From Bacteroidia bacterium (GTDB taxonomy: Bacteria > Bacteroidota > Bacteroidia > UKL13-3), in assembly GCA_041675505.1 (NCBI GenBank), contig JBAYTR010000004.1, forward strand, positions 52,036 to 116,035: 64,000 nucleotides of DNA, read 5' to 3'. The position numbers and the translations under genes were made by a program. Shown here piece after piece: positions 5,885-60,356 of this stretch; within the stretch, counting starts at the first letter, position 1; every line of letters begins with the position of its first letter. The notes below the pieces were generated by a model, which was given only the letters and a program-made list of their open reading frames with translations, did no database searches and was not told the origin of the DNA.

Positions 5885-6304
5885 TTACCCTTCCAGCATC
5901 AAAACAAAAAATAGAAAAAATAAAATACTCACTACAATAATGCCTATGAAACCTAAAAATCCGTATTTCATGTATTGCCAGGCTTCCTTGTATTTTCTCG
6001 TATATCCGTTTGATTTAAACGTACTGGCTACTGACCAAGGAATAACACCCCAAAAGAATACTATAAACAACGCTCTTTGTATCGCATCCAGCGGTTCATT
6101 TTCCTTTTGCAGGTGTGTTACCTCTTTAATTTGTATATCGTCCTGTGCATTTTTCATCTGCACATCAGATAAATTCCTTTTCTGAATTTCCATCTCGGCT
6201 GCTAGAACTGCCTCCGGTTGATAGTCTCCCCTAAGTTTTGTAACTATCTCCAGTAAGTCACTATCCGACCGTTTAGACATTACTGCTGCAAATTCGTTTT
6301 TCAT
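5885..6304 (-). CDS. Hypothetical membrane protein (139 aa), AT-rich island
   Basis: Soluble helical N-domain (SDSDLLEIVTKLRGDYQPEAVLAAEMEIQKRN) followed by two hydrophobic segments. Confidence 0.6.
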   Translation of the reverse strand: MKNEFAAVMSKRSDSDLLEIVTKLRGDYQPEAVLAAEMEIQKRNLSDVQMKNAQDDIQIKEVTHLQKENEPLDAIQRALFIVFFWGVIPWSVASTFKSNGYTRKYKEAWQYMKYGFLGFIGIIVVSILFFLFFVLMLEG

Positions 6305-6322
6305 ATTATTACTATTACTGCT

Positions 6323-6348
6323 CTGTCAGTTGTAGCAACTGACAGCAC
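6323..6348. repeat. 26-bp palindromic intergenic element, copy 2
   Basis: CTGTCAGTTGtagCAACTGACAGcac: a perfect 10-bp stem, 19 nt upstream of the start codon at 6304. Confidence 0.85.
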
Positions 6349-6372
6349 GCTAGGTTACTTTGTTTTGTACAT

Positions 6373-7398: not shown

Positions 7399-7411
7399 TT
7401 AGTTTTTACTA

Positions 7412-43790: not shown

Positions 43791-44420
43791 ATGTCCCGAA
43801 AACATTTACTCCTCTGCTTTAGTGCCATAGGTCTGCTGACCATGTTTGCTGCCTGCAAAAAATATCCGGTTGACGAAGAACCTCCGGTAGTTATTGTCAC
43901 ACCTGTTGATTCAACAACATTGGTTCAGTTTACCGGTTTGATAGGTGTGGATTCCATCAAATTATATGAGAATGTAAATAACTATTTCAACACACAAATC
44001 AATCAGCGGTTTACTGCTACACCGCCCGATTCGTCCAGCATTTCTTTTAACTCCACGCTCAAACAAACCAACTCCAATACCGCCATTTTTTCGGTTAATA
44101 AATCTACCCTCCTCTTTACTGGTTCCAACCCGAGTGAAAGTGATTTTGAAAACTTTTTTCAACCGGGCAGTGTGCCTTTTGCCACATTACTTACACCCAA
44201 CGGCATCACCATAGAATGGGTTGACAAAACAGGAACAGTGTGGACCAGCAACGGAGACCAGACCGGTAGCAATTTCAACATTATTACTTCCGGAAAAAGA
44301 TTAGTCTCAGGTACTGCCTTAATGGATGTAAAGTGTTTGTTCAACTGCAAACTTTACCACACCTCAGGCCCCACGCTCAACATATCCGGCCGATTCAACG
44401 GCTCGTTTAAAAACAACTAA
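43791..44420 (+). CDS. Hypothetical lipoprotein
   Basis: Signal peptide with lipobox FAAC. Confidence 0.6.
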   Translation: MSRKHLLLCFSAIGLLTMFAACKKYPVDEEPPVVIVTPVDSTTLVQFTGLIGVDSIKLYENVNNYFNTQINQRFTATPPDSSSISFNSTLKQTNSNTAIFSVNKSTLLFTGSNPSESDFENFFQPGSVPFATLLTPNGITIEWVDKTGTVWTSNGDQTGSNFNIITSGKRLVSGTALMDVKCLFNCKLYHTSGPTLNISGRFNGSFKNN

Positions 44421-44436
44421 CCCACCAACCCAACCA

Positions 44437-45795
44437 ATGGACAAAGACAACCAACTGTTGCGAATTTTTATGGTAGAAGATGATCCGGTGTATAGCCGTA
44501 TGCTTCGCTATATACTGGAACTAAACCCCGAACATGAAGTACATGCTTTCAGCAGCGGAAAAGAATGTGTAGATAACCTGCACAAAAAACCGGATGTTAT
44601 CACGCTTGACTATTCACTCACGGATATGACCGGTGCTGACGTATTAAAGAAAATCAAAAATTTTGACCCGGACATAAACGTTATCATTCTCTCAGGCCAA
44701 ACAGACATTTCTACTGCGATTAACCTGTTGAAAGAAGGCGCTTACGATTACATTACCAAAGACAACGACACCAAAACCAGGCTGCTCAACACGCTCAACA
44801 ACATCCGCACCAAGAGTGAGTTGAAACTGGAACTGGATACCCTTAAAGAAGAACTCGAAAAAACCTATGATTTCCATAAAAGCATTGTAGGAAACAGTGA
44901 CGTGATGAAAGGCATTTTCCGTTTGCTGGAAAAAGCCCTTAAAACAGACATTACCGTTTCCATTTACGGTGAAACAGGAACAGGTAAGGAAGTGGTGGCC
45001 AAAGCCATTCACTACAACTCCATCAGAAAAAAAGAACCTTTTGTGGCAATTAACGTAACGGCCATTCCAAGGGAGTTAATTGAAAGTGAATTATTCGGGC
45101 ATGAAAAAGGAGCCTTTACAGGAGCCACAGGCCGCAAAATTGGTCGCTTTGAAGCTGCCGGAAAAGGAACCATTTTTTTGGATGAAATAGGTGAAATGTC
45201 GCTTGACATGCAAGCCAAATTGTTGCGCGTGTTGCAGGAGAAAGAAATGATTCGTGTAGGAGGAAATGAAAACGTTCCGCTCAAAGCGCGCATTGTGGTG
45301 GCCACTCACCGTAACCTGCTGGAGGAAGTAGAAAAAGGAAATTTCCGTCAGGATTTGTATTACCGTTTACTGGGTTTGCCTATTCATTTACCGCCATTGC
45401 GCGAGCGGGGCAACGACATTATTTTATTGGCCAAACATTTCTTGGATGACTTCTCACGTCAGAATAAATTAGCCAAATACTCTTTTTCAAAAGAAGCCGT
45501 TGATGTATTGCAGCGTTACCACTATCCGGGTAATGTGCGTGAACTAAAAGCCGTGGTAGAATTGGCTGCTGTTATGGCTGCCGGCCAATCCATCAAAGCG
45601 GAAGATATTCAGTTTACACGTGGCACTAAAGTAAATGAGTTGATGAATGAAGAACTTTCGCTTCGCGAATACGAAATCAGGATTCTGAAACATTTTCTCG
45701 ACAAGTACAACCACAACGTTTTGTTGGTGGCCCGCAAACTGGATATCGGTAAGTCTACCATTTACCGCCTGATGAAGGAGTACAATATAGAGTAG
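44437..45795 (+). CDS. Sigma-54-dependent response regulator (NtrC family)
   Basis: Receiver domain (phospho-accepting Asp in VITLDYSL), AAA+ GETGTGKE, the GAFTGA loop (EKGAFTGAT) and a C-terminal Fis-type HTH. Confidence 0.92.
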   Translation: MDKDNQLLRIFMVEDDPVYSRMLRYILELNPEHEVHAFSSGKECVDNLHKKPDVITLDYSLTDMTGADVLKKIKNFDPDINVIILSGQTDISTAINLLKEGAYDYITKDNDTKTRLLNTLNNIRTKSELKLELDTLKEELEKTYDFHKSIVGNSDVMKGIFRLLEKALKTDITVSIYGETGTGKEVVAKAIHYNSIRKKEPFVAINVTAIPRELIESELFGHEKGAFTGATGRKIGRFEAAGKGTIFLDEIGEMSLDMQAKLLRVLQEKEMIRVGGNENVPLKARIVVATHRNLLEEVEKGNFRQDLYYRLLGLPIHLPPLRERGNDIILLAKHFLDDFSRQNKLAKYSFSKEAVDVLQRYHYPGNVRELKAVVELAAVMAAGQSIKAEDIQFTRGTKVNELMNEELSLREYEIRILKHFLDKYNHNVLLVARKLDIGKSTIYRLMKEYNIE

Positions 45796-45821
45796 TGAAA
45801 ATATTTCCAACAACCGATAAA

Positions 45822-46394
45822 CTACTCCAACAACACCCTGCGGGTTCTTACGTAACGCAGTCGGTAATAATGCGCTTCTAAATAATCTATACGAATACCG
45901 CCCGAGGTAGAAGAGTGTATGAACCTAACAGGTTGTCCGCGTTCAGAGATTACTATGCCCACATGGCCTATGCTTCTTTTGCGGGTATTGGCTCCTTTAA
46001 AAAAAATGAGGTCGCCTTTGGTAATTTTATCTTTGGGCACTTCAATGCCGTAAAAGGATTGTCCGGCTGAGGTATGGGGCAGCTTCACTCCGAAATTTCG
46101 AAAAACATACGAGGTAAAGCCCGAACAATCGAATCCTTTATCTGTGCTTCCTCCCCTGCGGTAGCGTAAACCCATATAATTGGTAGCAAATTTTACCACC
46201 TCTTCCCGCTTGGGTTTTGGCCGGTTGCCGGGAAAATAATAGGGTTCATCCTCTTCATACGTAGCAGAAAGAGAATCAGCAATAATCATGGAATCTATAA
46301 CGTGTTTGTACCTCTCCTCGCTCATTTTCTGAGCTTTAGCACCCAAAAAGGCACTTAGCGCAAGTAGCAGTAAAACACGTAATCGAAGTAACAT
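45822..46394 (-). CDS. NlpC/P60 (C40) family peptidase
   Basis: Signal peptide. Catalytic Cys context GFDCSGF and a downstream His (IGHVGIV). Confidence 0.85.
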   Translation of the reverse strand: MLLRLRVLLLLALSAFLGAKAQKMSEERYKHVIDSMIIADSLSATYEEDEPYYFPGNRPKPKREEVVKFATNYMGLRYRRGGSTDKGFDCSGFTSYVFRNFGVKLPHTSAGQSFYGIEVPKDKITKGDLIFFKGANTRKRSIGHVGIVISERGQPVRFIHSSTSGGIRIDYLEAHYYRLRYVRTRRVLLE

Positions 46395-46498
46395 AGGCCC
46401 GTCAATTTACAAAAATTGTACCTTAAGCCAAGGGCAAAGCTGACGATGATTGTGTGTCAGCTAATTAAAAAACTCTTTCCATTGGGCAATAAATCCCT

Positions 46499-46506
46499 TA
46501 TTTTTG
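46499..46506 (+). promoter_or_regulatory. Candidate -7 promoter box for bamD
   Basis: TATTTTTG matches TAnnTTTG, 14 nt upstream of the GTG at 46521. A TTG lies at 46482..46484. Confidence 0.4.
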
Positions 46507-46520
46507 CGGTTTATTGCATC

Positions 46521-47333
46521 GTGCGCCTTTACGTAATTTACATATTTTCAGCCCTTATTCTGCTGTTCAGTTCCTGCAGCAAGTACAACCGTGTGCTTAA
46601 GAACCCCGACTACGCGGAGAAACTGAAAGCAGCAGAAAAGTACTATGCCAAGAAAGACTATTTCAGAGCTTTAACGCTTTATGAGCAACTGCAGGACTAC
46701 TACAGCGGCACAGCCAAAGCAGAGGAAATGATGTATTACAACGCTTACTGTAATTACAACCTTCGCCAGTACACCATAGCCGGTTACCTCTTTAAAACTT
46801 ACGTAGAAAGTTACCCCGCAGCCAAACATACCGAAGAGTGTTATTACATGTATGCCAACTGCATTATGGAAGAAACGTACTCATCAGAACTGGACCAGAG
46901 CAACACACTCAAAGCTATTGAAGAGTATAAAATATTTGCCACACTTTTCCCTGAGAGCAAACACATTGAGCAATGCAACGCCAACATTGATAAAATGCGG
47001 GCAAAGCTGGCTGAAAAGACTTACAGAGGCGCAAAGCTTTATTACCGTGTGGAAGATTATAAGGCCGCCATTGTTGCGCTGAAGAATGCTATTAAAGACT
47101 TCCCCGATTTGCCTCAACGCGAAGAAGTGGAATTCCTGATTGTAAAATCATATTTTCTGCTGGCCAAAAACAGCGTAGAAGAAAAAAAGCAGGAACGCCT
47201 GGAGGCCACCGTAAAAGCCTACAACAGTTTTATTGAAAGTTACCCTACGGGCAAGTACCGTAAAGAAGCAGATTACCTTATCTTGCAAACCAACAGTCTC
47301 CTTAAAAAATATTCATCCGAAAATAAATCTTAA
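46521..47333 (+). CDS. bamD: Outer membrane protein assembly factor BamD (TPR lipoprotein)
   Basis: A GTG at 46521 yields a signal peptide ending in the lipobox LFSSC. The body is TPR-like (YYAKKDYFRALTLYEQL...) and lies directly upstream of rpoZ, as is usual in Bacteroidota. Track ORF start 46416 is less likely. Confidence 0.75.
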   Translation: MRLYVIYIFSALILLFSSCSKYNRVLKNPDYAEKLKAAEKYYAKKDYFRALTLYEQLQDYYSGTAKAEEMMYYNAYCNYNLRQYTIAGYLFKTYVESYPAAKHTEECYYMYANCIMEETYSSELDQSNTLKAIEEYKIFATLFPESKHIEQCNANIDKMRAKLAEKTYRGAKLYYRVEDYKAAIVALKNAIKDFPDLPQREEVEFLIVKSYFLLAKNSVEEKKQERLEATVKAYNSFIESYPTGKYRKEADYLILQTNSLLKKYSSENKS

Positions 47334-47337
47334 GATT

Positions 47338-47673
47338 ATGGCTAATATCACACAGTACCAAAATGTACCTACATCAACTATTCCACGCGACTTAACCAAG
47401 CTGGAAGACAAAACAGGTAACATTTATGAGTCTATCTCTATCATCTCCAAACGCGCTAACCAAATCTCAGCCCAGTTGAAAGAAGAGTTAACTTCTAAAC
47501 TGAATGAGTTTGCTTCAGACAGCGATACTTTGGAAGAAGTATTTGAAAACCGTGAACAGATTGAAATCTCTGCTTTCTACGAGCGTTTACCAAAGCCCGT
47601 TATGATTGCTACTGAAGAGTTCATGGCCGACAAGGTTTACTTCCGCAATCCTGCCAGAGAGAACCAGAAATAA
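47338..47673 (+). CDS. rpoZ: DNA-directed RNA polymerase subunit omega (Bacteroidota type)
   Basis: TGNIYESISIISKRANQI ... EEVFENREQIEIS.FYERLPKP is the pattern I recall for Bacteroidota omega. The ATG at 47338 removes the overlap with bamD. Confidence 0.75.
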   Translation: MANITQYQNVPTSTIPRDLTKLEDKTGNIYESISIISKRANQISAQLKEELTSKLNEFASDSDTLEEVFENREQIEISAFYERLPKPVMIATEEFMADKVYFRNPARENQK

Positions 47674-47676
47674 TTC

Positions 47677-48882
47677 ATGCTGGCCGGCAAAAAAATTCTG
47701 CTGGGTGTAACCGGTAGTATTGCTGCCTACAAAGCAGCTTTCCTTGTGCGTCTGTTGGTTAAAAACGGTGCCGAGGTAAAGGTAATCATGACGCCTGATG
47801 CTACGGAGTTTATTACCCCGCTTACACTGGCCACGCTATCTAAAAATGCAGTACATACCCAATTTGCCAATCGCGAAAGTGGGGAGTGGACCAACCACGT
47901 AGAGTTGGGCCTGTGGGCCGACATTATGGTGATTGCTCCGGCAACAGCCAACACACTGGCTAAAATGGCCACCGGCATTTGCGACAATATTTTACTTGCC
48001 ACTTACCTTTCCGCCCGCTGCAAGGTAATGTTTGCCCCCGCAATGGATTTAGATATGTACAGCCACCCTGCTACACGCAGTAATGTAGAAATGTTGCAGG
48101 CGTATGGCAACATGCTTATTCCCGCTGCAAAAGGCGAATTGGCCAGCGGTTTAAACGGTGAGGGCCGTATGGCTGAACCGGAAGAAATTCTTTACTCCAT
48201 ACATGCCCGCTTGGCTGATGATACCCGCTTTAAAGGCGAAAAAATCCTTATCACAGCCGGACCTACTTACGAGAATATTGACCCGGTGCGCTTTATAGGC
48301 AACCACTCCAGCGGTAAAATGGGTTTTGCTTTAGCCGAAGACTTTGCCGCTCACGGTGCCGAAGTTATACTGGTTACCGGCCCGACAGATGAAAAACATC
48401 ATCACCCCAATATTCAACGAATGGATGTGGTATCGGCTGAAGAGATGTACAACACCGTAACCAAGGAATTTAAAAAATGTTCCATCGCGGTAATGTCGGC
48501 AGCAGTGGCTGATTTTACCCCGCAAAAAGTGGAGATTCAAAAAATCAAAAAGAACGGTGACGGTCTTACCCTTAAGCTCAAAAAAACCAAAGATATATTG
48601 GCTGAGCTAGGTAAAACAAAAACCCGCAAACAATTGCTGGTAGGCTTTGCGCTCGAAACCAACAACGAAGTAGAAAACGCCAAAAAGAAACTCAATACCA
48701 AAAACCTCGACTTTATCGTTTTGAACTCACTTCGCACCAAAGGTGCCGGATTTGGTGGCCATACCAATCAGGTGGTTTTTATTGACCGCAACATGGATGT
48801 CACCAGATTTCCGCTAAAATCAAAACAGGAAGTTGCCCGTGATATCGTTAACAAAATACTTGCCCTACGTAATGAAGCGTAA
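47677..48882 (+). CDS. coaBC: Bifunctional phosphopantothenoylcysteine decarboxylase / phosphopantothenate-cysteine ligase
   Basis: Flavoprotein N-domain GKKILLGVTGSIAAYK and a CoaB domain ITAGPTYENIDPVRFIGNHSSGKMG. Confidence 0.92.
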   Translation: MLAGKKILLGVTGSIAAYKAAFLVRLLVKNGAEVKVIMTPDATEFITPLTLATLSKNAVHTQFANRESGEWTNHVELGLWADIMVIAPATANTLAKMATGICDNILLATYLSARCKVMFAPAMDLDMYSHPATRSNVEMLQAYGNMLIPAAKGELASGLNGEGRMAEPEEILYSIHARLADDTRFKGEKILITAGPTYENIDPVRFIGNHSSGKMGFALAEDFAAHGAEVILVTGPTDEKHHHPNIQRMDVVSAEEMYNTVTKEFKKCSIAVMSAAVADFTPQKVEIQKIKKNGDGLTLKLKKTKDILAELGKTKTRKQLLVGFALETNNEVENAKKKLNTKNLDFIVLNSLRTKGAGFGGHTNQVVFIDRNMDVTRFPLKSKQEVARDIVNKILALRNEA

Positions 48883-49780
48883 TCTCTGTTTATTTCTGCT
48901 GGCTGTTTGCACCTTTTTTCACGCTCAGGCTCAGGACCTGCGTTGCAACATACAAATCAATGCCGATCAGATTCAGCTCTCGGATAAAACCATTTTTCGC
49001 AAACTTGAAAATGCCTTGCGTGAGTTTATGAATAACCGTAAATGGACTAATGACAAGGTGCAGGACAACGAGCGTATTGACTGCAATATTCTCATTACCG
49101 TAAATGAATTTGCGCTGCCCGGTACGTTTAAAGCCAATGCCCAGATACAATCCCGCAGAACCACTTTTAACTCCAACTATTCCACCCAGGTGCTCAACTT
49201 CAATGATGAGAACTGGTACTTTGTATACAGCGAGTTTCAACCACTGGAGTATTCTGAAGGACAAAACATCAGCAACCTTACCAGTCTTTTGGCCTATTAC
49301 GCCTACGTTATTATAGGTATGGATTACGACACGTATGCATTGGAAGGCGGCACACCACATTTTACTAAAGCACAAAACATTGTGAACATTTGCCAGGCAG
49401 CCAATGAGCCGGGTTGGAAATCAAATGAAACCAAAGGCTCCCGCAACCGATTTGCTTTAATGGAAAATATTTTCAGTCCGCGGTTTGCACCCATGCGCAA
49501 GGCCATGTACACCTACCACCGCAACGGGCTCGACCTGATGCACAAAAATGTGGAAGAGGGCCGCGACAACATTTCCAAATCGCTTATTGAGGTACAAAAA
49601 GTATTTAAAATTGCACCCAACTCTATTTTTCTCAAGGCCTTTTTTGATGCCAAAGCCGATGAGTTAATTAACATTTACAAGGGACTCCCCTCTCAGCCTG
49701 AAAAACAAAAGATGGTGGAATTTCTTTCTTCCATTGATATTGCGAACATTAACCGATATCAGAATATTCTCAAAAACTGA
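48872..49780 (+). CDS. DUF4835-like secreted protein
   Basis: The ATG at 48872 gives the signal peptide MKRNLCLFLLAVCTFFHAQAQ. Its conserved position between coaBC and recN supports the call. Confidence 0.65.
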   Translation: MKRNLCLFLLAVCTFFHAQAQDLRCNIQINADQIQLSDKTIFRKLENALREFMNNRKWTNDKVQDNERIDCNILITVNEFALPGTFKANAQIQSRRTTFNSNYSTQVLNFNDENWYFVYSEFQPLEYSEGQNISNLTSLLAYYAYVIIGMDYDTYALEGGTPHFTKAQNIVNICQAANEPGWKSNETKGSRNRFALMENIFSPRFAPMRKAMYTYHRNGLDLMHKNVEEGRDNISKSLIEVQKVFKIAPNSIFLKAFFDAKADELINIYKGLPSQPEKQKMVEFLSSIDIANINRYQNILKN

Positions 49781-49828
49781 TTGCTGAAATGTTTTAGATT
49801 TGCTCTGTACATTTGAAGAGCATATCCC

Positions 49829-51487
49829 GTGATTACCCACTTACGCATACAAAACTACGCCATCATCCGCTCGCTTGATATTGAGCTGAAGAACAATCTG
49901 AGCGCTGTTACCGGAGAAACCGGTGCCGGTAAATCTATTGTAATGGGTGCGCTGGGCCTTATACTGGGTGAACGTGCCGACAGCAGCGTGTTGTGGAACA
50001 AAAACGAGAAGTGCATTGTGGAAGGAACCTTTAACATTGCGCCCTACTCCCTTAAAAAATTCTTTGAACTCAACGACCTCGACTACGATGAAGAAACAAT
50101 CATCAGGCGCGAGATCAGCGAAGCCGGAAAATCAAGAGCCTTTATTAACGATACGCCAGTCACCCTTACTTTAGTTAAAGAACTGGGCGAGCGTTTGGTG
50201 GATATTCACTCGCAGCATGAAACACTGGAACTCAACAACCGTGAATTTCAACTGGAAATTGTAGACGTGTTCAGCAAAGTGCAGGAAGAAGTTACCGCTT
50301 ACCGTGCCTCGTTTAACCACTACCAGCAACTGCAAAAACAGCTTGCCCAACTGGAAGAACAGGATGCTGCCGCTACAAGGGATAAAGACTTCAAACAGTT
50401 TTTGCTCAATGAACTGTTGGAAGCCAACCTGCAACCCGGTGAGCAGGAACAAACCGAAACCGAACTCAACACTCTCAACAATGCAGAAGATATACAACTG
50501 GCTTTGAATACCGGAGTGCAGTTGCTGCGCGAACAGGAAAATGCCGCCATCAGTATGTTGCAGGAAGTGCGCACACAGTTTCAACGCGTGGCCAAATTTA
50601 ATCCCCGCATTGATGATTTATTTATGCGCTTAGACAGTTCGCTCATTGAATTGAAGGATATTGCCAACGAGGCGGAAGACATTGCACAAGACATTAGCTC
50701 AGATAAACAGCGGCAGGAAGTTTTAACCACCCGTTTAGACCTGATGTATTCCCTGCAAAAGAAACACCGCTGTAACACGTTGGAAGAACTACACAGCATA
50801 CAACAACAACTGAGCACGGAGTTGGAAAACATTGACTCCTTAGAAGCCAAGATTGAGCAACTAAAAAAAGAACAAAACGAGTTGCACACTACCCTGCTCA
50901 AAACCGCCAAACAAATTTCAGATAAGCGCAAAAAACATATTCCTGCACTGGAGAAAAGTATCAATGTATTGCTGCAGCAGGTGGGCATGCCCAATGCCGG
51001 CATACAAATGAAACAGGATATTTTACCTGATGCGCAACTGAACCTGAACGGAGTAGATCAACTCACCTTTCTGTTTGCCTCCAACAAAGGCAGCGCCTTT
51101 CAACCGCTCAACAAAATTGCCTCAGGCGGTGAACTCTCGCGGTTGATGTTGTGCATTAAAACCGTAGTGGCCCATTTAACCCAACTGCCCACGCTTATCT
51201 TTGATGAAATAGACACTGGCATCTCAGGCGAAACGGCCCGGCAGGTGGGCGATGTAATGAAAAAACTGGCTGAGAAACACCAGGTAATTTGTATTACCCA
51301 CTTACCCCAAATTGCCGGTAAAGCGCACCAGCATTATTTTGTTTACAAAGAAAGCGACAGCAAAACCACCCACAGCAACATGCGCCTGCTAAACAGCAAT
51401 GAGCGCATTGAAGAAATTGCCAAAATGCTCAGTGGCTCCAAACCAACAGAAAGTGCCTTGGCTAATGCCAGGGAATTGGTGGGGTGA
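49829..51487 (+). CDS. recN: DNA repair protein RecN
   Basis: GTG start. Walker A GETGAGKS, a long coiled coil, and C-terminal ASGGELSRLML plus LIFDEIDTGISG. Confidence 0.93.
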   Translation: MITHLRIQNYAIIRSLDIELKNNLSAVTGETGAGKSIVMGALGLILGERADSSVLWNKNEKCIVEGTFNIAPYSLKKFFELNDLDYDEETIIRREISEAGKSRAFINDTPVTLTLVKELGERLVDIHSQHETLELNNREFQLEIVDVFSKVQEEVTAYRASFNHYQQLQKQLAQLEEQDAAATRDKDFKQFLLNELLEANLQPGEQEQTETELNTLNNAEDIQLALNTGVQLLREQENAAISMLQEVRTQFQRVAKFNPRIDDLFMRLDSSLIELKDIANEAEDIAQDISSDKQRQEVLTTRLDLMYSLQKKHRCNTLEELHSIQQQLSTELENIDSLEAKIEQLKKEQNELHTTLLKTAKQISDKRKKHIPALEKSINVLLQQVGMPNAGIQMKQDILPDAQLNLNGVDQLTFLFASNKGSAFQPLNKIASGGELSRLMLCIKTVVAHLTQLPTLIFDEIDTGISGETARQVGDVMKKLAEKHQVICITHLPQIAGKAHQHYFVYKESDSKTTHSNMRLLNSNERIEEIAKMLSGSKPTESALANARELVG

Positions 51488-51685
51488 AGTAGATTGAAAT
51501 TGAACTTTGTTCAAGATGATTTACTTTTTGTTGATGGTGATTCAAATTTGTATAAATTTACAGAATAAAATATGCATTTTAATTTCAAGAATCATATGGT
51601 TATATTTTGCTTAAACAAAGACTAATCATATTTATTTGAAAAAAAATTTAAGCCTTGTATAAGAATTATTTATTGATAAATAAGA

Positions 51686-54487
51686 ATGATAATAAGCAAT
51701 AGACGAGATGCAGGTTACACGATAATCAGTCGATTTGAAGAAAACTTCAGAGGCTTCCTAGAAACATCTTTAACAATGAAGTATTCAAATTTTTTTGAAC
51801 ACATACCTCAAGGTGTATTGATAAAGGCTAATGAACGAAATAATAATTTAACCTATGAAAATTACTCTGACTTCTTTGAGAACATTGACTTTCCAGACTT
51901 GAAAGAAATTTCTCTTTTCAAGGACCATTTTTCAGAAATCCTAAAATCCTTTACTGACAAGAACGAATTTTCAAAAGCAATGGACGAATTATATTCATTG
52001 CGTTGCAAAATTGCTCATATAAAAGGCTACTTTACAAGTGTTGACTTAGATAAATTAGTTGAGCAAACTGATTTAATTGCAAAGGGATTACAATTCAATA
52101 CTTTCAACGAACTTCTTAATAAAATAAAGACTGACCCAAGTTCAGTTATTATCAAAATACCATCTGACTTTGTTGAAGACTTCTTAAATACTAGTGGAAT
52201 TATAAACAATCTACCAATTCCTGATTATGAGTACGAAGGTGGATTTGTTGGTAGAGAAGAAGACAGAAAGAAAATAATACAGCTTATAAAAAGCGAAAAA
52301 TTCCCTGTTGTAACTTTAACTGGCTCTGGCGGAGTTGGCAAAACTGCACTGGCATTAAAAGTAATTCAAGACATAACAGAAAACCCTGAGAATAAATTTT
52401 TTGATGCAATTGTATGGCTAAGTGCTAAAGAGAATAAACTTTCTGACTTAGGCATTGAGGATATTGAACCTTCTTTGAAAAGTTATGAAGAATTATTGGA
52501 CACAATCATTGACCTTTTCGGATTCAGGAGTGAATTGACATCAACAGATACAACAGAAAAAGAAAAATTAGTTAATTCAGTTATTGAGCTTTCAAATAGA
52601 ATTCTAATAGCTATTGACAACCTAGAAACAATTACAGACCAACGAATAATCAACTTTATATTTGATGCCCCTATAAGTATAAAATTTCTTATCACTTCAA
52701 GAAAAGGTATCGGACAAGTTGAAAGACGACATGAGTTAAAAGAGCTAAAAGCTAAAGAAGCTGTTTATCTCTTTAGGCAACTTGCAAGAGATAAACAGCT
52801 ACCTTCTCTTGCTTCGTTGCCTGACGAAATAATTAAAACATATACCGCAAAAGTTTCATTCTATCCCCTTGCAATTAAGTGGGTAATTGGGCAAGTTGCA
52901 AGAGGTAAAAATATCAATACTGTTATTGATTCAATCCACACAACAGATAGTGATATTTCAAGATTCTGCTATGAACAAATCTTCTCCACACTTTCGGACA
53001 ACTGTAAAAAAATCCTTTATGCTTTAAGTTTACTTGATGCTTCATCAAACTCGAGTGTTCTTGAATATGTTGTTGAGTTAGACGAACAAACTTTTGATGA
53101 CACTATAGAAGATTTAATACTTGTTTCATTAGTAATACCTGAACAATTTCAGAATGAGAGAAAGGAAATTTCTACAAGATACTCTTTATTGACGCTTACC
53201 AAAGGTTATACAAGAATTCAACTTAATAAGAATATTGATCTCAGGGAATATTTAAAAAATAAAATAAATCAAGTTGAAAGTACTATTTCTACAACTGAGA
53301 AGGCAAAGAAAGAATACAAGCACAGTTTATATAACTTTGGAGCCAAATCTGACGAAGAAAAAATTGCAACAATAATTGCTCAAACTGCTTTCCAAAAATA
53401 TCAATCGGGACACTACGTTGCGGCAGTTGAAGAATATAAAAGGGCTGTAAAAATGGCTCCAGGTTTTGCACCAGTTTATAGAAATTGGGCAATAATGGAA
53501 GCGTATGAAAATCACTTAACAGAAGCGGAACAATTGATGGAGAAAGCCGCAAAAATTGACCAATCTGACCCACAAATATTTCTAATTTGGGGTAATATTT
53601 ATCGTAAAAGTCGTAAACATACTGAAGCACACAAAAAATATCTTATTGCACACAGTCTAGCACCAGAAGACCCAATAATACTAAATGCATTAGGGCAAGC
53701 TAAGGGTTGGTTAAGTGAATTTCCTGAGGCAAATTCACTCTTAACAAAAGCACTAAATTCAAAATTTGATTCTGTTAAACATGAAATTATTTGTAGAACA
53801 AGTTTGGCTGAAAATCTTATAAATTGGGGAGATTTTTTAGTAAAAGATAGGAACTATATAGAAGCAGAAAAAAAATATCATTCAGCCGTAAATCAATGTA
53901 TGGCGATGCTTGGCACAAATTCAAGAGATGCAAAAGTTTTTAATGCGCTAACGAAAGCTAATTTAAGACGAGGACAGCTTTTTCTAAAAAATAAACAAAA
54001 CAAAAAAGCACTCTCTGCTCTCAACAGTGTTTGTAATTCAATTGCATTAAGCTTTAAACAAGGACAATACAAACTTGAAGCTCTTCTGCTTATTGGAGAA
54101 TATTACATGAAAGAACATAACACTGCAGAATTGAAAAAAATACTGTTCCGATTTGGTGAATTTAAAAACTCAGAAATAATTAAACAAAATCCGAATTACG
54201 TTGACCGAATAGCTTTGCTTCACCAGTATGCAAATCCTGAAAATTTGAAAAAAGGAATAATTTATAATGTAAACTCTGAAAGAGGCTTTGTAATAATAAA
54301 AGAAGACGGTACAGATGATACTTACCTAGGTCATAAAGTAAAATTTATCCCTTCACTTGATACCGTCTCATTTTCACTAAAAAACTTACAAGTTACTTTT
54401 ACGGCATCGGTTTCAAATCCAAGTGCCGATGGTATTATACGAAAACAGGCTAAAGATATCAGAATAATCAATACACGTGTATTGTAA
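51686..54487 (+). CDS. STAND NTPase: Swt1-like HEPN (Rx4H), NB-ARC P-loop, TPR array and a C-terminal cold-shock-like OB fold
   Basis: The gene is AT-rich. R106-CKIA-H111 lies at 52001..52018. FVGRE plus Walker A GSGGVGKT lies at 52322..52345, Walker B ILIAIDNLE at 52601..52627, then KFLITSR. TPR-like units cover aa ~565-690 and the CSD-like tail GIIYNVNSERGFVIIKEDGTDDTYLGHKV covers aa ~855-930. Confidence 0.75.
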   Translation: MIISNRRDAGYTIISRFEENFRGFLETSLTMKYSNFFEHIPQGVLIKANERNNNLTYENYSDFFENIDFPDLKEISLFKDHFSEILKSFTDKNEFSKAMDELYSLRCKIAHIKGYFTSVDLDKLVEQTDLIAKGLQFNTFNELLNKIKTDPSSVIIKIPSDFVEDFLNTSGIINNLPIPDYEYEGGFVGREEDRKKIIQLIKSEKFPVVTLTGSGGVGKTALALKVIQDITENPENKFFDAIVWLSAKENKLSDLGIEDIEPSLKSYEELLDTIIDLFGFRSELTSTDTTEKEKLVNSVIELSNRILIAIDNLETITDQRIINFIFDAPISIKFLITSRKGIGQVERRHELKELKAKEAVYLFRQLARDKQLPSLASLPDEIIKTYTAKVSFYPLAIKWVIGQVARGKNINTVIDSIHTTDSDISRFCYEQIFSTLSDNCKKILYALSLLDASSNSSVLEYVVELDEQTFDDTIEDLILVSLVIPEQFQNERKEISTRYSLLTLTKGYTRIQLNKNIDLREYLKNKINQVESTISTTEKAKKEYKHSLYNFGAKSDEEKIATIIAQTAFQKYQSGHYVAAVEEYKRAVKMAPGFAPVYRNWAIMEAYENHLTEAEQLMEKAAKIDQSDPQIFLIWGNIYRKSRKHTEAHKKYLIAHSLAPEDPIILNALGQAKGWLSEFPEANSLLTKALNSKFDSVKHEIICRTSLAENLINWGDFLVKDRNYIEAEKKYHSAVNQCMAMLGTNSRDAKVFNALTKANLRRGQLFLKNKQNKKALSALNSVCNSIALSFKQGQYKLEALLLIGEYYMKEHNTAELKKILFRFGEFKNSEIIKQNPNYVDRIALLHQYANPENLKKGIIYNVNSERGFVIIKEDGTDDTYLGHKVKFIPSLDTVSFSLKNLQVTFTASVSNPSADGIIRKQAKDIRIINTRVL

Positions 54488-54803
54488 ATCCGCAAACTAA
54501 CCGATTAGAAGTGTTTCTTAGAATACTTACTCTTATGTTCGTCTCCCCACGAAACAAATCGTAGTGTCAAAACATTACCGCCTCATCAGGAGATTACTTC
54601 GTCACCCCCGCACACAAGGCTTTGCGCTCCTCGTAATGACGGTGTGTTGGAAAATTAGTTTTCATCAAAAAACAGAAAGAAACGTCACTGCCAGCTATGC
54701 GTTGGGTTGTGCAGGGTGCGTGGCAGTCCCCCAAAGGTGAGCAGATTCTCCTCTCTCCCACCTCGGTTTGTTTCTTCTCCCCGCTGCTTTAACTTTGTTA
54801 CTT

Positions 54804-55163
54804 ATGGAGAAAGTAAATGTGCATCAAAAATTAGCCTTGTTTTCAGAACACTGGAGCCCCAAGATAGTGGGTGAATTAAACGGGCAACAAGTAAAGCTGG
54901 CAAAATTTAAAGGGGCGTTTACCTGGCACCAACACGAGGCAGAAGACGAGTTATTTTTTGTTATCAAAGGTAGCTTCAGAATGGAGTACCGCGATAAAAC
55001 CATCACCGTAAACGAGAATGAATTTCTAATAGTACCCAAAGGAACAGAACACCGCCCCGTTGCTGATGAAGAAGTTTGCGTGATGTTGTTTGAACCTGCC
55101 TCCACACTGAACACCGGCAATACCGTAAACGATTTAACCAAGCCCGTTCTCGACCGTATATAA
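54804..55163 (+). CDS. Cupin domain protein
   Basis: The ATG at 54804 (MEKVNVHQK...). Cupin motifs WHQHEAEDELFFV and PKGTEHRP. Confidence 0.75.
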   Translation: MEKVNVHQKLALFSEHWSPKIVGELNGQQVKLAKFKGAFTWHQHEAEDELFFVIKGSFRMEYRDKTITVNENEFLIVPKGTEHRPVADEEVCVMLFEPASTLNTGNTVNDLTKPVLDRI

Positions 55164-55299
55164 ATCTACACACGTACTGTTTGTTGTTCAACCAATGTTT
55201 TCTCGATGAACAGAAAATTGATTCTACCGTTTACCGAAAGATTATCAACACCTGTCGAGTAGCCGCATCTTACCTTGCAGAAGCACTTACCTTGGCTGT

Positions 55300-56265
55300 A
55301 TGAAAGCCATCATTCATACCCGATACGGCCCGCCTGAAGTAGCGGAGTTAAAAGAAATACCTGTACCGCAGCCTCAGAAAAATGAACTGCTGATAAAAGT
55401 AATGGCCACTACCGTAAACCGCACCGATTGTGGCTTTCGCAGTGCTGAATATTTTGTGAGTCGGTTTTTTAGCGGCTTGTTTCGACCCAAACAACAAACA
55501 TTGGGTTGTGAGTTTGCCGGAATAGTAGAAGCAGTTGGAAGCAACGTTACCTTATTTTCAGTGGGTGATAAAATAGTAGGTTACAACGATGAACATTTTG
55601 GTGCACATGCCCAGTACCTGCTGGTGGCCGAAGATAAAGCCATCACTCACCTGCCGCACAATTTAAGTTTTGAAGAAGCCGCAGCACTTACCGAAGGTGC
55701 ACACTATGCTTTGTGCAACATACGCGCAGCCAAGGTACAAGGCGGGCAAAACGTATTGGTGTACGGTGCCACCGGAGCCATTGGTTCGGCAGCAGTGCAG
55801 TTGCTTAAACATTTCGGAGCAAACGTAACGGCAGTTTGTAATACTCCAAACGTATCACTTGTAAAATCATTGGGCGCTGATGTGGTGATAGATTACACCC
55901 AACAGGATTATACCACTAACCACAACACCTACGATTTTGTATTTGATGCGGTGGGTAAAAGTTCTTTCGGCCAGGCCAAAAAAGTGCTGACCAAAAAAGG
56001 CATATACATCTCCACAGAATTGGGCAAAAACGGGGAGAATATTTACCTCGCGTTGCTCACTCCTTTGCTGGGAGGTAAAAGGTTGTTGTTTCCGCTTCCT
56101 ACCATCAGCAAAAGTGATGTAGAACTGTTGCGTGATTTGGCAGAAGCCGGAAAATTTAAGCCGGTAATTGACCGCACTTATTCCCTGGAACAGATAGTAG
56201 AAGCTTACCGTTACGTGGAAAGCGGACAAAAAATAGGGAATGTTATTGTGACTCCCTGGAGTTAA
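55300..56265 (+). CDS. NAD(P)-dependent medium-chain dehydrogenase/reductase (quinone oxidoreductase-like)
   Basis: GroES-like N-domain and a Rossmann motif VLVYGATGAIGSAAVQL. Confidence 0.8.
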   Translation: MKAIIHTRYGPPEVAELKEIPVPQPQKNELLIKVMATTVNRTDCGFRSAEYFVSRFFSGLFRPKQQTLGCEFAGIVEAVGSNVTLFSVGDKIVGYNDEHFGAHAQYLLVAEDKAITHLPHNLSFEEAAALTEGAHYALCNIRAAKVQGGQNVLVYGATGAIGSAAVQLLKHFGANVTAVCNTPNVSLVKSLGADVVIDYTQQDYTTNHNTYDFVFDAVGKSSFGQAKKVLTKKGIYISTELGKNGENIYLALLTPLLGGKRLLFPLPTISKSDVELLRDLAEAGKFKPVIDRTYSLEQIVEAYRYVESGQKIGNVIVTPWS

Positions 56266-56372
56266 GCGATAGTGCCCGACCCGCACAAACGGACTTTATA
56301 TTAGATTAACTATTTGTTAATACGAAGCAACATTTCTTTCTTTGGTGCTGTCTTTAGGACAAACGCCAACAC

Positions 56373-58625
56373 ATGAAACCACACACCCTACTTTTAACCT
56401 CGTTGCTTATTGCTGTGGGCTTTTCACCCGTTAATGCACAAACTTTTTATCAGGTTGACTCCGTTCAAACTATTGAAATAACCTTTACCCAAAGCAATTG
56501 GGACTACCAGATGGACACTGCCAAAGCCGGATTGGAAGACTACATTGTGGCAGCAGAGTGTAAAGTAAACGGAGTGAGTTTTCAAAATGTAGGCGTGAAA
56601 TACAAAGGCAACAGTTCTTACCGTTCCAACCAAACGAAAAATCCTTTGCACATTGAGTTGGATTACATCAACGACAAACAAAATTATCAGGGATACAAAG
56701 ACATTAAACTGGGCAACGGTTTCAGCGACCCCAGTTTTGTGCGCGAGGTGTTGAGCTATGAAATTCTGCGCAACTACATGAGTGCACCGCTGAGCAATTA
56801 TGCCAAGGTATACATCAACGGCACTTACTACGGATTGTACACCTCCTCACAACACATCGGTAAAGATTTTTGCAAAAAGCATTTTTTGTCGTCACACGGC
56901 ACCTTGGTGAAATGTAACCCCGCATCAGTAATGACCTATGCTTCCGACCTCAAATACCGTGGCACCGATAGTTCACTTTACTCCAACCACTACGAAATAA
57001 AATCTGATAACGGCTGGAAAGATCTGATTGATTTGTGTGACATACTGAATAACAACACCACTGACCTGGAACAGGTAATGGACATGGACAAAGCCATTTG
57101 GATGCTGGCCTTCAACAACCTGTTTGTGAACCTGGACAGTTACAACGGGGGCTTTAAGCAGAACTATTATTTATATAAACCGGATAGCGCACGTTTTGCT
57201 TCCATTGTGTGGGACCTGAACATGAGCTTTGGTTCATTCACCAACGTGGGTACGGGTGGTCAGCAATCGGGTACACAATTGCAGCAATTGAGTCCGTTTG
57301 TAAACAACACCGCCAACTGGCCACTCATTCAAAAAGTAATGGCTAACCCGCAATACAAGCGCAAGTACATTGCCCATATGAAAACTATGTTGGAAGAGCA
57401 GGTAATCACCGGCAACTATTATACCCGTGCACAGCAATTACAAAACATCATCAACTCAGCTGTACAAGCTGATACCTATAAATTTTATACCTCCACACAG
57501 TTCACTCAAAACCTAACTTCCAGTGCAGGTTCAGGACCCGGTGGAGGAATCACCGGCATTAAACCCCTGATGGATGGCAGGGTAACTTACCTGCAAAGTT
57601 TAACTGAAGTTACTGCTACGGCTCCCACCATTAGCAACGTGCAGGTAAATACAGGCACACACCGCATGGGCGATACCGTGTGGATACAAGCATCCGTTAC
57701 TGGTGGCACAACTGTATTGCTTAATTACCGCAATACACGTGTAGCTCCGTTTGTGGCAACTGCCATGTTCGATGATGGTAACCACCGCGATGGTTCAGCC
57801 GGAGACAATGTTTTTGGTGCAGCATTGGTGCTTACCACAGGTTATGGTGATTATTACGTGTATGCTGAAAACAGTACTGCCGGAAAGTTTTCACCTCAAC
57901 GTGCTGAATATGAATTTTACCGTGTCAACATCAGCAACAATCTACCGGCCAATGGTACTGCGGTACTTAATGAACTGATGGCTTCCAACACCAATGGCAC
58001 AACAGATGCCAACTACGATTACGAAGACTGGATTGAACTCTATAACAACAGCAACTCAGCGGTAAGTTTAAGCGGCATGTTTCTTACTGACGATATCAGT
58101 GATTTGCAAAAATGGGCCTTCCCTGCTGATGCGGTTATACCTGCCAACGGTTACACCATAGTATGGTGTGATGAAGACAATGGCGAAAGTGGTTTTCATG
58201 CCAACTTCAAATTGCTCGCTACAGGAGAAACCCTGTGGCTGACAGACGGCACAAATGTGAAAGACAGTGTAACTTTTGGCGCGGTGCAGTCAAATGCAGC
58301 AGTAGCCAGATGTGCAAACGGCACAGGCACATTTAAAAGTGGTTTAGCTCCAAGCTTCAAATCAGAAAATTTTTGTTTTCCTGTAGGTATAACAAAATTG
58401 AGTGATGCCTTTACCCCCGTTGTGTATCCAAATCCTTCAGGCGGTTTGTTCAACATCCGCACTAGCGAGCCATTACACATTCAGGTATATTCACTTTCAG
58501 GACAATTGGTGGCAGAAGTAAACAACGGTACAACTTTTTCACTTCAACATGTGCCAGCAGGTTTATATGTGGTGCGTATGCAAGGGGCTACAGAAGTCTA
58601 TACCTGCAAAGTGCAGAAGTGGTAA
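56373..58625 (+). CDS. CotH-family protein with a lamin-tail domain and T9SS sorting domain
   Basis: CotH-like N-region (KYKGNSSY, NPLHIELDY, DPSFVREVLSYEILRNYM, VYINGTYYGLY), LTD (VLNELMASNTN...DWIELYNNSN...LTDD) and T9SS CTD (VYPNPSGGLFNI...GLYVVRM). Confidence 0.75.
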   Translation: MKPHTLLLTSLLIAVGFSPVNAQTFYQVDSVQTIEITFTQSNWDYQMDTAKAGLEDYIVAAECKVNGVSFQNVGVKYKGNSSYRSNQTKNPLHIELDYINDKQNYQGYKDIKLGNGFSDPSFVREVLSYEILRNYMSAPLSNYAKVYINGTYYGLYTSSQHIGKDFCKKHFLSSHGTLVKCNPASVMTYASDLKYRGTDSSLYSNHYEIKSDNGWKDLIDLCDILNNNTTDLEQVMDMDKAIWMLAFNNLFVNLDSYNGGFKQNYYLYKPDSARFASIVWDLNMSFGSFTNVGTGGQQSGTQLQQLSPFVNNTANWPLIQKVMANPQYKRKYIAHMKTMLEEQVITGNYYTRAQQLQNIINSAVQADTYKFYTSTQFTQNLTSSAGSGPGGGITGIKPLMDGRVTYLQSLTEVTATAPTISNVQVNTGTHRMGDTVWIQASVTGGTTVLLNYRNTRVAPFVATAMFDDGNHRDGSAGDNVFGAALVLTTGYGDYYVYAENSTAGKFSPQRAEYEFYRVNISNNLPANGTAVLNELMASNTNGTTDANYDYEDWIELYNNSNSAVSLSGMFLTDDISDLQKWAFPADAVIPANGYTIVWCDEDNGESGFHANFKLLATGETLWLTDGTNVKDSVTFGAVQSNAAVARCANGTGTFKSGLAPSFKSENFCFPVGITKLSDAFTPVVYPNPSGGLFNIRTSEPLHIQVYSLSGQLVAEVNNGTTFSLQHVPAGLYVVRMQGATEVYTCKVQKW

Positions 58626-58628
58626 ACC

Positions 58629-59096
58629 TTACTTTACAGGTCGGAAGAACTGCACCTTGCCGCTTTTAATATCGTCAAGGTTATATTCATTCAGCATTAC
58701 CCGTTTTACATTGTTAATGTTCTGCTCAGCTAAAACAAGTTGCCGTGAACTGCGTACCTCATACACCACAGCGGTATGTTTAATCATGCTCCAGCGTGTA
58801 GTGCTGCTTCCCTCTTTGTGTTCCATAGTAACACCTGTAAACTGAATGATGTCACCCGGCAGCAAAGAATCTTTTTCAAATTTTAACAGCTTTCCAAACA
58901 ACAGCGGTCGCTCCCATTTAGCTTGTGCATAGGTAAGCGCCTGATTGGCCAAATCCCAACACTCGCCTCTATCTACCTTTTTACCCACCACGGTTTTTAC
59001 ATACTGAATAACCAGTGCATTCATTTCAGGCAGTTCTTTTTGAGAAGGTTGGTTAAAGAAACAAAAGGAAAGTAAAAGTAACACTAAAGATTTCAT
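58629..59096 (-). CDS. CHAP/NlpC-P60-like cysteine peptidase-fold protein
   Basis: Trimmed to the ATG at 59096 (signal peptide MKSLVLLLLSFCFF), because the longer ORF would overlap lhgO. Candidate catalytic Cys in RGECWDLA and His in KHTAVVY. Confidence 0.55.
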   Translation of the reverse strand: MKSLVLLLLSFCFFNQPSQKELPEMNALVIQYVKTVVGKKVDRGECWDLANQALTYAQAKWERPLLFGKLLKFEKDSLLPGDIIQFTGVTMEHKEGSSTTRWSMIKHTAVVYEVRSSRQLVLAEQNINNVKRVMLNEYNLDDIKSGKVQFFRPVK

Positions 59097-59159
59097 GGTA
59101 TAAATATAAGCAATTACAAATGCCGTAATAACGTATTTTCGTGCCAAATTGTACAGCAC

Positions 59160-60356
59160 ATGACTTACGATGTAGTAATTATAGGCGGAGGAATTGTAGG
59201 ATTGGCCACTGCCCTTAAGATAAAAGAACAAAAACCTCAACTATCCGTTGTTTTACTTGAAAAAGAAGCGGGTGTGGCTCGCCACCAAACGGGTCACAAT
59301 AGCGGGGTAATTCACTCCGGTATTTATTACAAACCGGGTAGTCTTAAAGCACAGAATTGTTTGCGCGGTTATCACTACCTGCTTGACTTTTGTAAAAAGA
59401 ACGACATCCGCTTCGATTTGTGCGGGAAAATAATTGTGTCAACCGCTGAGCATGAACTGCAGCCTATGGAAAACGTTTACCAACGCGGATTGCAAAACGG
59501 TTTACAAGGAATGAAAAAATTGAGTGCAGGTGAGTTGAAAGAATATGAACCACATGTAAACGGCATTGCGGGAATTTTTGTACCACAAACAGGCATCATT
59601 GATTACAAAGAAGTATCAGCTAAAATCGCTGAAAATTTTCAGCAATACGGTGGACATGTGCTCACCTCCTCGAAAGTAACAGACATTAAGTACAATGGAA
59701 CACTAAGTGAGGTAATAACCGAAGATAGCACGTATACTGGTCGTTTAGTAATTAACTGTGCCGGCCTCCATTCAGATAAAGTAGCTGCACTTACACGTGA
59801 AAAACTGGATGTGCGCATTATTCCTTTTCGTGGCGAATATTTTCTGCTCAAAAAAGAAAAACAGGGTTTGGTTAAAAACCTCATTTACCCGGTACCTGAT
59901 CCCAACTTCCCCTTCTTGGGAGTACATTTTACCCGCATGATTCACGGTGAAGTGGAAGCCGGCCCCAATGCCGTGTTTGCCTTTAAACGAGAAGGCTACA
60001 AAAAAACCGACATCAACATCAAAGAAACTTTTGAGTCGTTGATGTGGCCGGGATTTCAGAAAGTGATGGCCAAATACTGGAAAACAGGCATGGGTGAGTT
60101 TTACCGTTCCTTCTCCAAAGCAGCCTTTACCAAAGCTTTGCAGCGTTTAATTCCTGAAGTACAGGAAGATGACTTAATTCCGGCAGGAGCAGGAGTACGC
60201 GCACAAGCCTGCGACCGCACAGGTGGTTTAATTGATGATTTCCTGATTCTTGAAGACGAACACGTTATTAATGTGTGCAACGCTCCTTCACCTGCAGCCA
60301 CTTCTTCCCTGTCCATTGGTCATACTTTAGCTGACATGGCCGTGAAAAGATTTTAA
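59160..60356 (+). CDS. lhgO: L-2-hydroxyglutarate oxidase (FAD-dependent)
   Basis: YDVVIIGGGIVGLATA FAD fold and RHQTGHNSGVIHSGIYYKPGSLKA, the characteristic LhgO stretch. Confidence 0.85.
   Translation: MTYDVVIIGGGIVGLATALKIKEQKPQLSVVLLEKEAGVARHQTGHNSGVIHSGIYYKPGSLKAQNCLRGYHYLLDFCKKNDIRFDLCGKIIVSTAEHELQPMENVYQRGLQNGLQGMKKLSAGELKEYEPHVNGIAGIFVPQTGIIDYKEVSAKIAENFQQYGGHVLTSSKVTDIKYNGTLSEVITEDSTYTGRLVINCAGLHSDKVAALTREKLDVRIIPFRGEYFLLKKEKQGLVKNLIYPVPDPNFPFLGVHFTRMIHGEVEAGPNAVFAFKREGYKKTDINIKETFESLMWPGFQKVMAKYWKTGMGEFYRSFSKAAFTKALQRLIPEVQEDDLIPAGAGVRAQACDRTGGLIDDFLILEDEHVINVCNAPSPAATSSLSIGHTLADMAVKRF

Follow-up and report, generated by a model that had tools for sequence, protein, structure and literature searches.

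What a solitary AT-rich gene does between recN and a cupin gene, and how it came to lie there, is the question raised by one stretch of 64,000 nucleotides (nt) from a Bacteroidia bacterium of the UKL13-3 lineage (assembly GCA_041675505.1, contig JBAYTR010000004.1, positions 52,036 to 116,035 of the forward strand), which as a whole is called the window below. The gene is an open reading frame (ORF) encoding a protein of 933 amino acids (aa), on which an N-terminal Swt1-like HEPN domain, a STAND ATPase of the NB-ARC type, TPR repeats and a cold-shock-like OB fold appear to follow each other in a single chain (coordinates in Table 1). Judged by analogy with characterised systems, the protein is probably a self-contained, NLR/Avs-like sensor-effector of abortive infection, that is to say, a defence RNase which acts as a single protein, and its gene has been horizontally acquired.

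First of all, the N-terminal domain is, on sequence grounds, a divergent member of the Swt1-like HEPN domains whose catalytic motif is intact. When the family alignment of this domain was used as a profile against 1.84 billion representative proteins, 474 matches were obtained at E ≤ 1e-3, and the remote matches at E 1e-9 to 1e-6 have the domain in other architectures. Ten remote matches were scanned, and in nine of them the matched region exceeds the cutoff of the Pfam family HEPN_Swt1 (PF18731), the tenth reaching 26.3 bits against the 27.5 required; a BrxL/Lon fusion and a 773-aa protein with the order HEPN_Swt1-NB-ARC-TPR are among the ten. In the hhalign comparison of the family domain with 24 remote regions, a probability of 99.5% and an E-value of 2.8e-23 were found over 136 columns, a value that is partly circular since the 24 sequences had been chosen with the same profile, their Pfam assignment being independent of it. 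This alignment superposes L-R-C-K-I-A-H of the family on I-R-N-x-I-A-H, and R-F-E-E-x-F-R on the E-x3-R of helix 1. In addition, the AlphaFold2 (AF2) model of the domain is all-helical, with helices up to aa 149 and a predicted local distance difference test score (pLDDT) of 82, and the linker that follows (aa 151-186) has low pLDDT in the isolated-domain model. The Swt1-like head that the original prediction had proposed is thus firmly linked to its family by a profile search reaching domains that Pfam independently assigns to PF18731, together with hhalign.

Both the NB-ARC(STAND) ATPase and the TPR repeats, which had likewise been predicted, lie over the Pfam gathering scores; NCBIfam gives for the 933-aa protein generic TPR and ATPase cross-matches only, far under their cutoffs. 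The Rx4H, Walker A and Walker B motifs were recomputed and stand where they had been placed, and KFLITSR is present. An alignment of 39 family members (44-89% identity) was used to define invariant residues, and those of the ATPase are given in Table 1. Among them, T337-S338-R339 presumably occupies the position of the NB-ARC RNBS-B / sensor-1 'TTR' motif, and Y-P-L-A-I (aa 393-397) is in what we take to be the position of the 'GLPL' motif. Mean pairwise identity is 0.58-0.63 in the nucleotide-binding domain (NBD), ARC and proximal TPR blocks (0.58 in the conserved TPR block of aa 556-700, which also has TPR matches in the PDB), 0.30 in the distal helical block and 0.31 in the cold-shock-like tail. 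The distal block and the tail are therefore the most divergent parts, a pattern expected of a specificity module, and the distal repeats (aa 701-845) can be regarded as the candidate specificity region.

The C-terminal 89 aa are supported as a cold-shock-type OB fold by their predicted fold only. The AF2 model, built from a 34-sequence alignment, has five strands and a pLDDT of 86.6, and in the Foldseek search of the PDB almost all of the top ~30 matches are cold-shock domains (probability 1.00, best E=2.5e-4). On CspA (1mjc) the model superposes with a TM-score of 0.81 (target-normalised) and a root-mean-square deviation (rmsd) of 2.4 Å, and over CspA, CspB and YB-1 the predicted five-stranded barrel gives TM-scores of 0.56-0.82 (target-normalised) and rmsd values of 2.3-3.4 Å. 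An aromatic residue is kept at two RNP-like positions, namely F/Y868 (33 of 34 sequences) and Y/F880 (34 of 34), and His stands at 883 in half of them; by our own reading, residues 868, 880 and 883 would correspond to two or three positions of the CspA RNP motifs. Unlike the CspA family, the tail is the last domain of a 930-aa receptor, is fast-evolving and has no sequence-level match: neither a Pfam match, CSD (PF00313) included, nor RNP1/RNP2 motifs were found in the C-terminal 89 aa. That is to say, the predicted cold-shock tail holds at the level of the fold, by AF2 and Foldseek, and fails at the level of sequence. In sequence and profile searches of the PDB, the tail had weak uL24/KOW-like matches only (E~0.04), and these are superseded by the fold search. 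The tail profile is detected in only 15 of 47 remote full-length representatives; the tail is either fast-evolving or replaceable. One remote member (P0139, 1008 aa) apparently has two tandem tails, at aa 855-932 and 934-1008, the matches being weak (E=0.014 and 0.0014).

This layout as such is not new, since HEPN, STAND, TPR and S1/cold-shock domains were listed together in 2013, when Anantharaman, Makarova, Burroughs, Koonin and Aravind described 'STAND-ATPase, TPR, S1' fusions within the Swt1-like HEPN family, mentioned C-terminal cold-shock-like OB folds on HEPN-STAND proteins, and predicted a defence role for the HEPN-STAND-TPR-S1/cold-shock proteins (PMC3710099). Their work was purely computational, with Npun_F6454, MED222_16016 and Desac_1927 from cyanobacteria and proteobacteria as examples. 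Likened by domain order, the 933-aa protein shares with that layout the N-terminal Swt1 HEPN with an active motif, the STAND NTPase, the TPR repeats and the C-terminal OB fold; it differs in that the HEPN domain of the Bacteroidota family is divergent and lies under the Pfam threshold. The statement in the original prediction that the combination with a terminal OB fold could not be placed in a named family is therefore superseded, and it is well supported that the protein is a new, experimentally uncharacterised member of a computationally catalogued architecture. In the literature, no experimental study of a HEPN-STAND-TPR-cold-shock protein was found.

The family itself is large. In a collection of 5.8 billion proteins, 632 homologues were found, more than 100 of them full length (~930 aa, 44-89% identity, 97-100% coverage), and those with an organism name are all from Bacteroidota (Niabella, Flavobacterium, Sphingobacterium, Pontibacter, Marinoscillum, Chitinophagales). 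Several single members deserve mention in their own right. The homologue P0006, at 74% identity, is preceded by an ORF of 71 aa (L011 7776-7991, also L012 2323-2538) that stops 10 nt before it; this ORF has no Pfam family, and with nothing like it in the 198-nt spacer of the window, a conserved partnership is improbable. In Sphingobacterium oryzagri, the homologue P0044 (882 aa, L014 6611-8001) seemingly lacks the first ~50 HEPN residues and has an ISL3 transposase directly upstream; an insertion sequence may have truncated it. A BREX BrxL Lon-like protease (P0225, 835 aa) carries at its C-terminus a Swt1-like HEPN domain related to the N-terminal domain described here. The 3806-aa protein P0193, with 13 'matches' to the linker, was set aside as a composition artefact, being a low-complexity, Pro/Thr-rich protein.

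As to how the gene came to its place, the composition of the locus is the first indication. The low G+C which had been estimated from sampled lines is borne out: the gene has 32.2% G+C against 42.4% for the remaining window and is the lowest-G+C 2.8-kb stretch of the 64 kb, ~4.4 standard deviations under the mean. Across 51500-54500 the G+C fraction is 0.27-0.35 and in the flanks 0.42-0.47, and at third codon positions it is 22.7% in this gene versus 44-53% in the recN, coaBC, oxidoreductase and CotH genes. The ORF and its two non-coding spacers (198 and 316 bp) were recomputed and are correct, recN ending at 51487 and the 316 nt after the ORF stop leading to the cupin ATG at 54804. The ATG at 51686 is the right start, since in the family alignment the homologues begin level with the N-terminus MIISNRRD. 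By Pfam, which agrees with the neighbours named before, bamD/YfiO, coaBC, DUF4835 and recN lie upstream, and cupin, a Zn-ADH-type oxidoreductase and a CotH/T9SS protein gene downstream. The Bacteroidota promoter element TAnnTTTG was not found in the 198-nt spacer, and the Rfam scan of 51300-55000 gave no match.

The second indication is the state of the recN-cupin junction in relatives, which had been suggested as a check. In a RecN-based scan with one genome per species, three contigs are relevant. The junction is seen in three states, in the window with the 933-aa gene, in L001 with other cargo and in L008 as an empty site, so that at this site the gene is absent from both relatives. L001, a Bacteroidia metagenome-assembled genome, is 93% identical over window positions 44000-51489 and 92% over 54563-60000, and between its recN and cupin genes lie 2290 nt without relation to the window, in which there are two different ORFs (9941-11176, 411 aa; 11329-11928, 199 aa), both with hydrophobic, signal-peptide-like N-termini and neither with a Pfam family. 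At the empty site of L008, the recN stop is followed by ~33 nt and then the cupin leader. Moreover, the two proteins most similar to this one (89% and 78% identity) are encoded at unrelated, non-syntenic loci, and the G+C of the homologue gene is below that of the upstream flank in all seven loci tested and below that of both flanks in six of the seven. From the composition, the three junction states in close relatives and the non-syntenic closest homologues, it is supported that the gene was horizontally acquired, as predicted, at the recN-cupin junction, which is a variable hot spot.

In the non-coding DNA upstream of the cupin gene, the ~200-nt segment 54563-54766, richer in G+C, is ~92% conserved at L001 11952-12158 despite the different cargo there; it occurs once in the window, has neither an Rfam match nor a fold signal, and may have been left by an earlier insertion or belong to the hot spot. 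No integrase and no tRNA-type target were found at the recN-cupin site, and the search for flanking repeats at the island edges (att sites, target duplications) gave none that is convincing. A direct repeat of 12 nt (51500-51511 and 54788-54799, differing at one position; TTGAACTTTGTT / TTTAACTTTGTT) has its copies within 25 nt of each island edge, and the empty site of L008 has the right-hand copy only; with 15 families of short repeats of this kind in the region, itself included, it is probably due to chance and was not counted as evidence. In L008 (756-1666), ~910 nt missing from the window lie between cupin and the oxidoreductase (window 55175-55229), with ORFs that by eye resemble an HxlR-type winged-helix regulator (127 aa) and a DoxX-like membrane protein (116 aa), and the neighbourhood as a whole is therefore indel-prone.

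The suggestion of a defence role comes from the genomic association of the family. At least 7 of 26 family loci adjoin known defence or mobility genes, as given at the end of Table 1. When the three nearest ORFs per side at the 26 loci (118 ORFs) were compared with the PADLOC models at 1e-10, they matched 331 models, among them mREase_IV (3.9e-228), Old (8.8e-228), type I methyltransferases, GajA and reverse transcriptases (RTs), a count that rests on crude ORF calls and includes redundant models. The control, 118 ORFs called in the same way from the window minus the 933-aa gene and from RecN loci, matched 9 models, all of them generic cross-matches to RecN-like and sigma-54-activator ATPases.

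Table 1. Features of the recN-cupin island in window coordinates, followed by the defence and mobility genes next to other family loci
Feature	Position	Strand	Basis or remark
AT-rich spacer from recN stop to ORF, left edge of island	51488..51685	.	198 nt; similarity to L001 stops at 51489
HEPN / NB-ARC STAND / TPR / cold-shock-like ORF	51686..54487	+	933 aa, ATG start
Putative Swt1-like HEPN domain, aa 1-150	51686..52135	+	all-helical AF2 model, profile search, hhalign
Rx4H motif R106-C-K-I-A-H111	52001..52018	+	aligns onto R-N-x-I-A-H of bona fide Swt1-like HEPN
Conserved linker, aa 151-186	52136..52243	+	ends NNLPxPDYEYEGG before FVGRE; P177, D180, G185, G186 invariant
NB-ARC-type STAND NTPase, aa 195-410	52268..52915	+	PF00931, E=2.8e-11, 43.6 bits vs cutoff 23.5
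Walker A GSGGVGKT, aa 213-220	52322..52345	+	G213, G215-K219 invariant
Walker B ILIAIDNLE	52601..52627	+	D311, N312, L313, E314, T315 invariant
T337-S338-R339	52694..52702	+	invariant in 39 members
Y-P-L-A-I, aa 393-397	52862..52876	+	P394, L395, I397 invariant
Post-NB-ARC region and helical connector, aa 411-555	52916..53350	+	without separate family match
Conserved TPR block, aa 556-700	53351..53785	+	TPR_2, TPR_14, TPR_11 above cutoff, aa 569-672
Variable helical-repeat block, aa 701-845	53786..54220	+	weak TPR_12 match, aa 708-764
Predicted cold-shock-domain-like OB fold, aa 846-933	54221..54484	+	five strands, AF2 and Foldseek
3' flank found solely in the island, right edge relative to L001	54488..54562	.	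L001 comparison
G+C-richer non-coding segment upstream of cupin	54563..54766	.	in L001, not in L008
Neighbours at locus L014			AbiD (1.9e-73), retron-type RT (6.9e-67), resolvase, integrase
Neighbours at locus L018			integrase, excisionase-like HTH, NsnA/GmrSD (3.7e-55), second HEPN protein
Neighbours at locus L016			integrase, RadC, patatin
Neighbours at locus L020			DUF4411 / ImmA-IrrE (Peptidase_M78) pair
Neighbour at locus L030			PLD-helicase-DUF3427 restriction enzyme
Neighbours at loci L036 and L050			type I restriction-modification (R-M) genes

The Avs proteins are among the nearest of the known systems, and the effectors of those characterised are mostly DNases, SIR2 and similar domains. 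Avs1-4 were reportedly treated by Gao et al. in 2022. In the STAND census of Lee et al. (2026), 589 clades are distinguished and Avs7-21 are named, with other effectors, HEPN being mentioned in passing only (PMC13581612). Like Avs1-5 and Avs7-21 of that census, the 933-aa protein combines effector, STAND NTPase and TPR-like sensor, in this order from the N-terminus, in one polypeptide; the family also shares the horizontal mobility and the association with defence islands, and the expected logic would be the same, ligand-induced oligomerisation turning the effector on. Unlike Avs, its effector is a predicted HEPN RNase, and its sensor ends in the cold-shock-like OB fold. As for the effector, DARNA / PD-T7-3 has an N-terminal Rx4H HEPN domain that is activated on infection, with a catalytic centre made by dimerisation, and tRNA is cleaved in abortive infection; its trigger involves SSB-bound ssDNA (bioRxiv 10.64898/2026.02.22.705581). 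The likeness is an analogy of mechanism only, DARNA being a 55-kDa protein without STAND ATPase, TPR or cold-shock fold and without PADLOC cross-match. RNase L and Ire1, the KEN-type HEPN proteins, also couple a repeat-domain sensor to a HEPN RNase which is active only on ligand-induced dimerisation or oligomerisation (compare PMC3710099), but they belong to the KEN subfamily, have a pseudokinase or kinase in the middle instead of a STAND ATPase, and are eukaryotic.

The mechanism proposed for the protein is drawn from the established behaviour of STAND/Avs proteins, which oligomerise upon ligand binding (PMC13581612), and of HEPN RNases, which require dimerisation for a composite active site (PMC3710099; bioRxiv 10.64898/2026.02.22.705581). 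In the uninfected cell, the protein would be a closed, inactive monomer. A ligand of the invader would be bound by the variable distal repeats and the cold-shock-like tail together, and this ligand may be a phage protein, as in the Avs families with known triggers, a single-stranded nucleic acid, as the cold-shock fold of the tail would allow, or both in complex. Binding would then lead to nucleotide exchange and ATP-dependent oligomerisation, by which the N-terminal HEPN domains would be paired into a composite RNase active site. The active RNase would cut cellular and/or phage RNA (tRNA, rRNA or mRNA), so that translation would stop and the infection would be aborted or growth arrested. A narrower version, in which the tail and the distal repeats sense nucleic acid directly and respond to phage ssRNA/ssDNA or to a complex of SSB with nucleic acid instead of a phage protein, seems rather unlikely; if true, the protein would be a nucleic-acid-sensing STAND, unlike every Avs family with a known trigger.

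Besides the partly circular hhalign value, the crude counts of the neighbourhood test and the assignment of the tail by predicted fold, several results weigh against the reading as a defence RNase. The best Pfam match of the N-terminal domain in a direct scan is indeed HEPN_Swt1, over aa 18-130 and profile positions 7-109 of 115 (hmmscan), but with E=0.043 and 14.5 bits against a cutoff of 27.5; Foldseek of this domain against the PDB gave nothing significant, the HEPN structures 4nqf and PbAbiF appearing at E=2-7, and sequence and profile searches of the PDB with it gave nothing meaningful. The hhalign comparison of the tail with CspA and CspB reached a probability of ~10%, which is not significant. 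At the locus, sigma-70-type promoter sites were no more frequent than expected by chance, and the search for terminators gave none. No match to the family was found in phage records, IMG/VR gave one marginal match to the NBD only, and plasmids gave only remote relatives of ~24% identity. With the 933-aa protein itself, PADLOC-DB 2.0 (a library without Avs7-21) returned 0 families at E ≤ 1, and the protein is therefore not a recognised Avs type. Lastly, housekeeping genes are the sole neighbours at many family loci, this window included.

The last point also speaks for a non-immune RNase, in which the STAND switch would sense an endogenous cue (e.g., unstructured RNA bound by the tail under stress) and the HEPN domain would remodel host RNA pools in physiological regulation. 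Across Bacteroidota, conservation is rather good in the N-terminal domain, the NBD and the proximal TPR block (mean pairwise identity 0.47-0.63), cellular RNA is the normal ligand of cold-shock folds, and defence and non-defence STAND clades are interspersed (PMC13581612). However, a housekeeping regulator should be syntenic and host-like in composition, whereas this gene is missing at this site in the two closest genomes, its closest homologues are elsewhere, its composition is foreign, and the family recurs beside R-M, Abi and retron genes and integrases; such a role is unlikely. Another conceivable role is in conflicts between mobile elements, the protein being toxin-like cargo of an integrative element which is directed against competing plasmids or integrative and conjugative elements, or which stabilises its own carrier, and not against phages. 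Several homologues do lie inside integrase-bearing islands, one homologue stands near the DUF4411/ImmA-IrrE pair, and HEPN domains are frequent as toxins (PMC3710099). In the window, however, the gene is solitary, with no antitoxin-like partner and no element boundaries found in addition to the lack of an integrase and of convincing flanking repeats, and the single-chain effector-sensor STANDs studied to date are phage sensors (PMC13581612), so this role too is to be considered improbable.

In comparison with the preferred defence RNase, a protein whose HEPN domain does not cut RNA would act by sequestration or scaffolding, the domain serving to bind RNA or to oligomerise, a role proposed for eukaryotic Swt1. 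A Cys directly follows R106 in this protein, and in many active HEPN domains a polar N, H or D stands right after the motif Arg. Swt1 proper is also regarded as inactive (PMC3710099). In the aligned family, however, R106 and H111 and the first-helix residues E18 and R22 are invariant in all 39 members, as are K108 and I109 within the motif, and bacterial Swt1-like forms, STAND fusions included, are listed as mostly active (PMC3710099). With the motif R and H invariant, a non-catalytic domain is quite unlikely. The source annotations of the homologues are only 'NB-ARC domain-containing', 'TPR repeat protein' and, from the JGI, 'LuxR family glucitol operon activator', and the role of a GutR/MalT-type STAND transcription activator, which this last name of several homologues and the NB-ARC and TPR core common to GutR-like regulators would suggest, is effectively refuted by the lack of any helix-turn-helix (HTH) or LuxR domain at E ≤ 1 in the whole protein or its isolated N- and C-terminal parts, the N-terminal position being taken by HEPN and no regulated operon adjoining the gene.

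Elsewhere in the window there is a second AT-rich patch (5000-7400, G+C 0.29-0.36), located between a lipocalin-like gene and tsaD. It contains four ORFs of 123-341 aa on the minus strand (5031-5405, 5371-5817, 5885-6304 and 6373-7398), none of which has a Pfam or PADLOC match, and it may be another acquired cargo region.

Should the defence RNase be confirmed, the known repertoire would gain a STAND immune receptor that acts as a single protein and is armed with an RNase. The family of more than 600 homologues, for which PADLOC has no model, is known by its named members from Bacteroidota, a phylum in which defence is under-studied. The recN-cupin junction, occupied, alternatively occupied and empty in close relatives, is in turn a clean natural hot spot for cargo. 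Above all, the cold-shock-like tail is a testable handle on the question of whether bacterial NLR-like receptors can read nucleic acids besides proteins.

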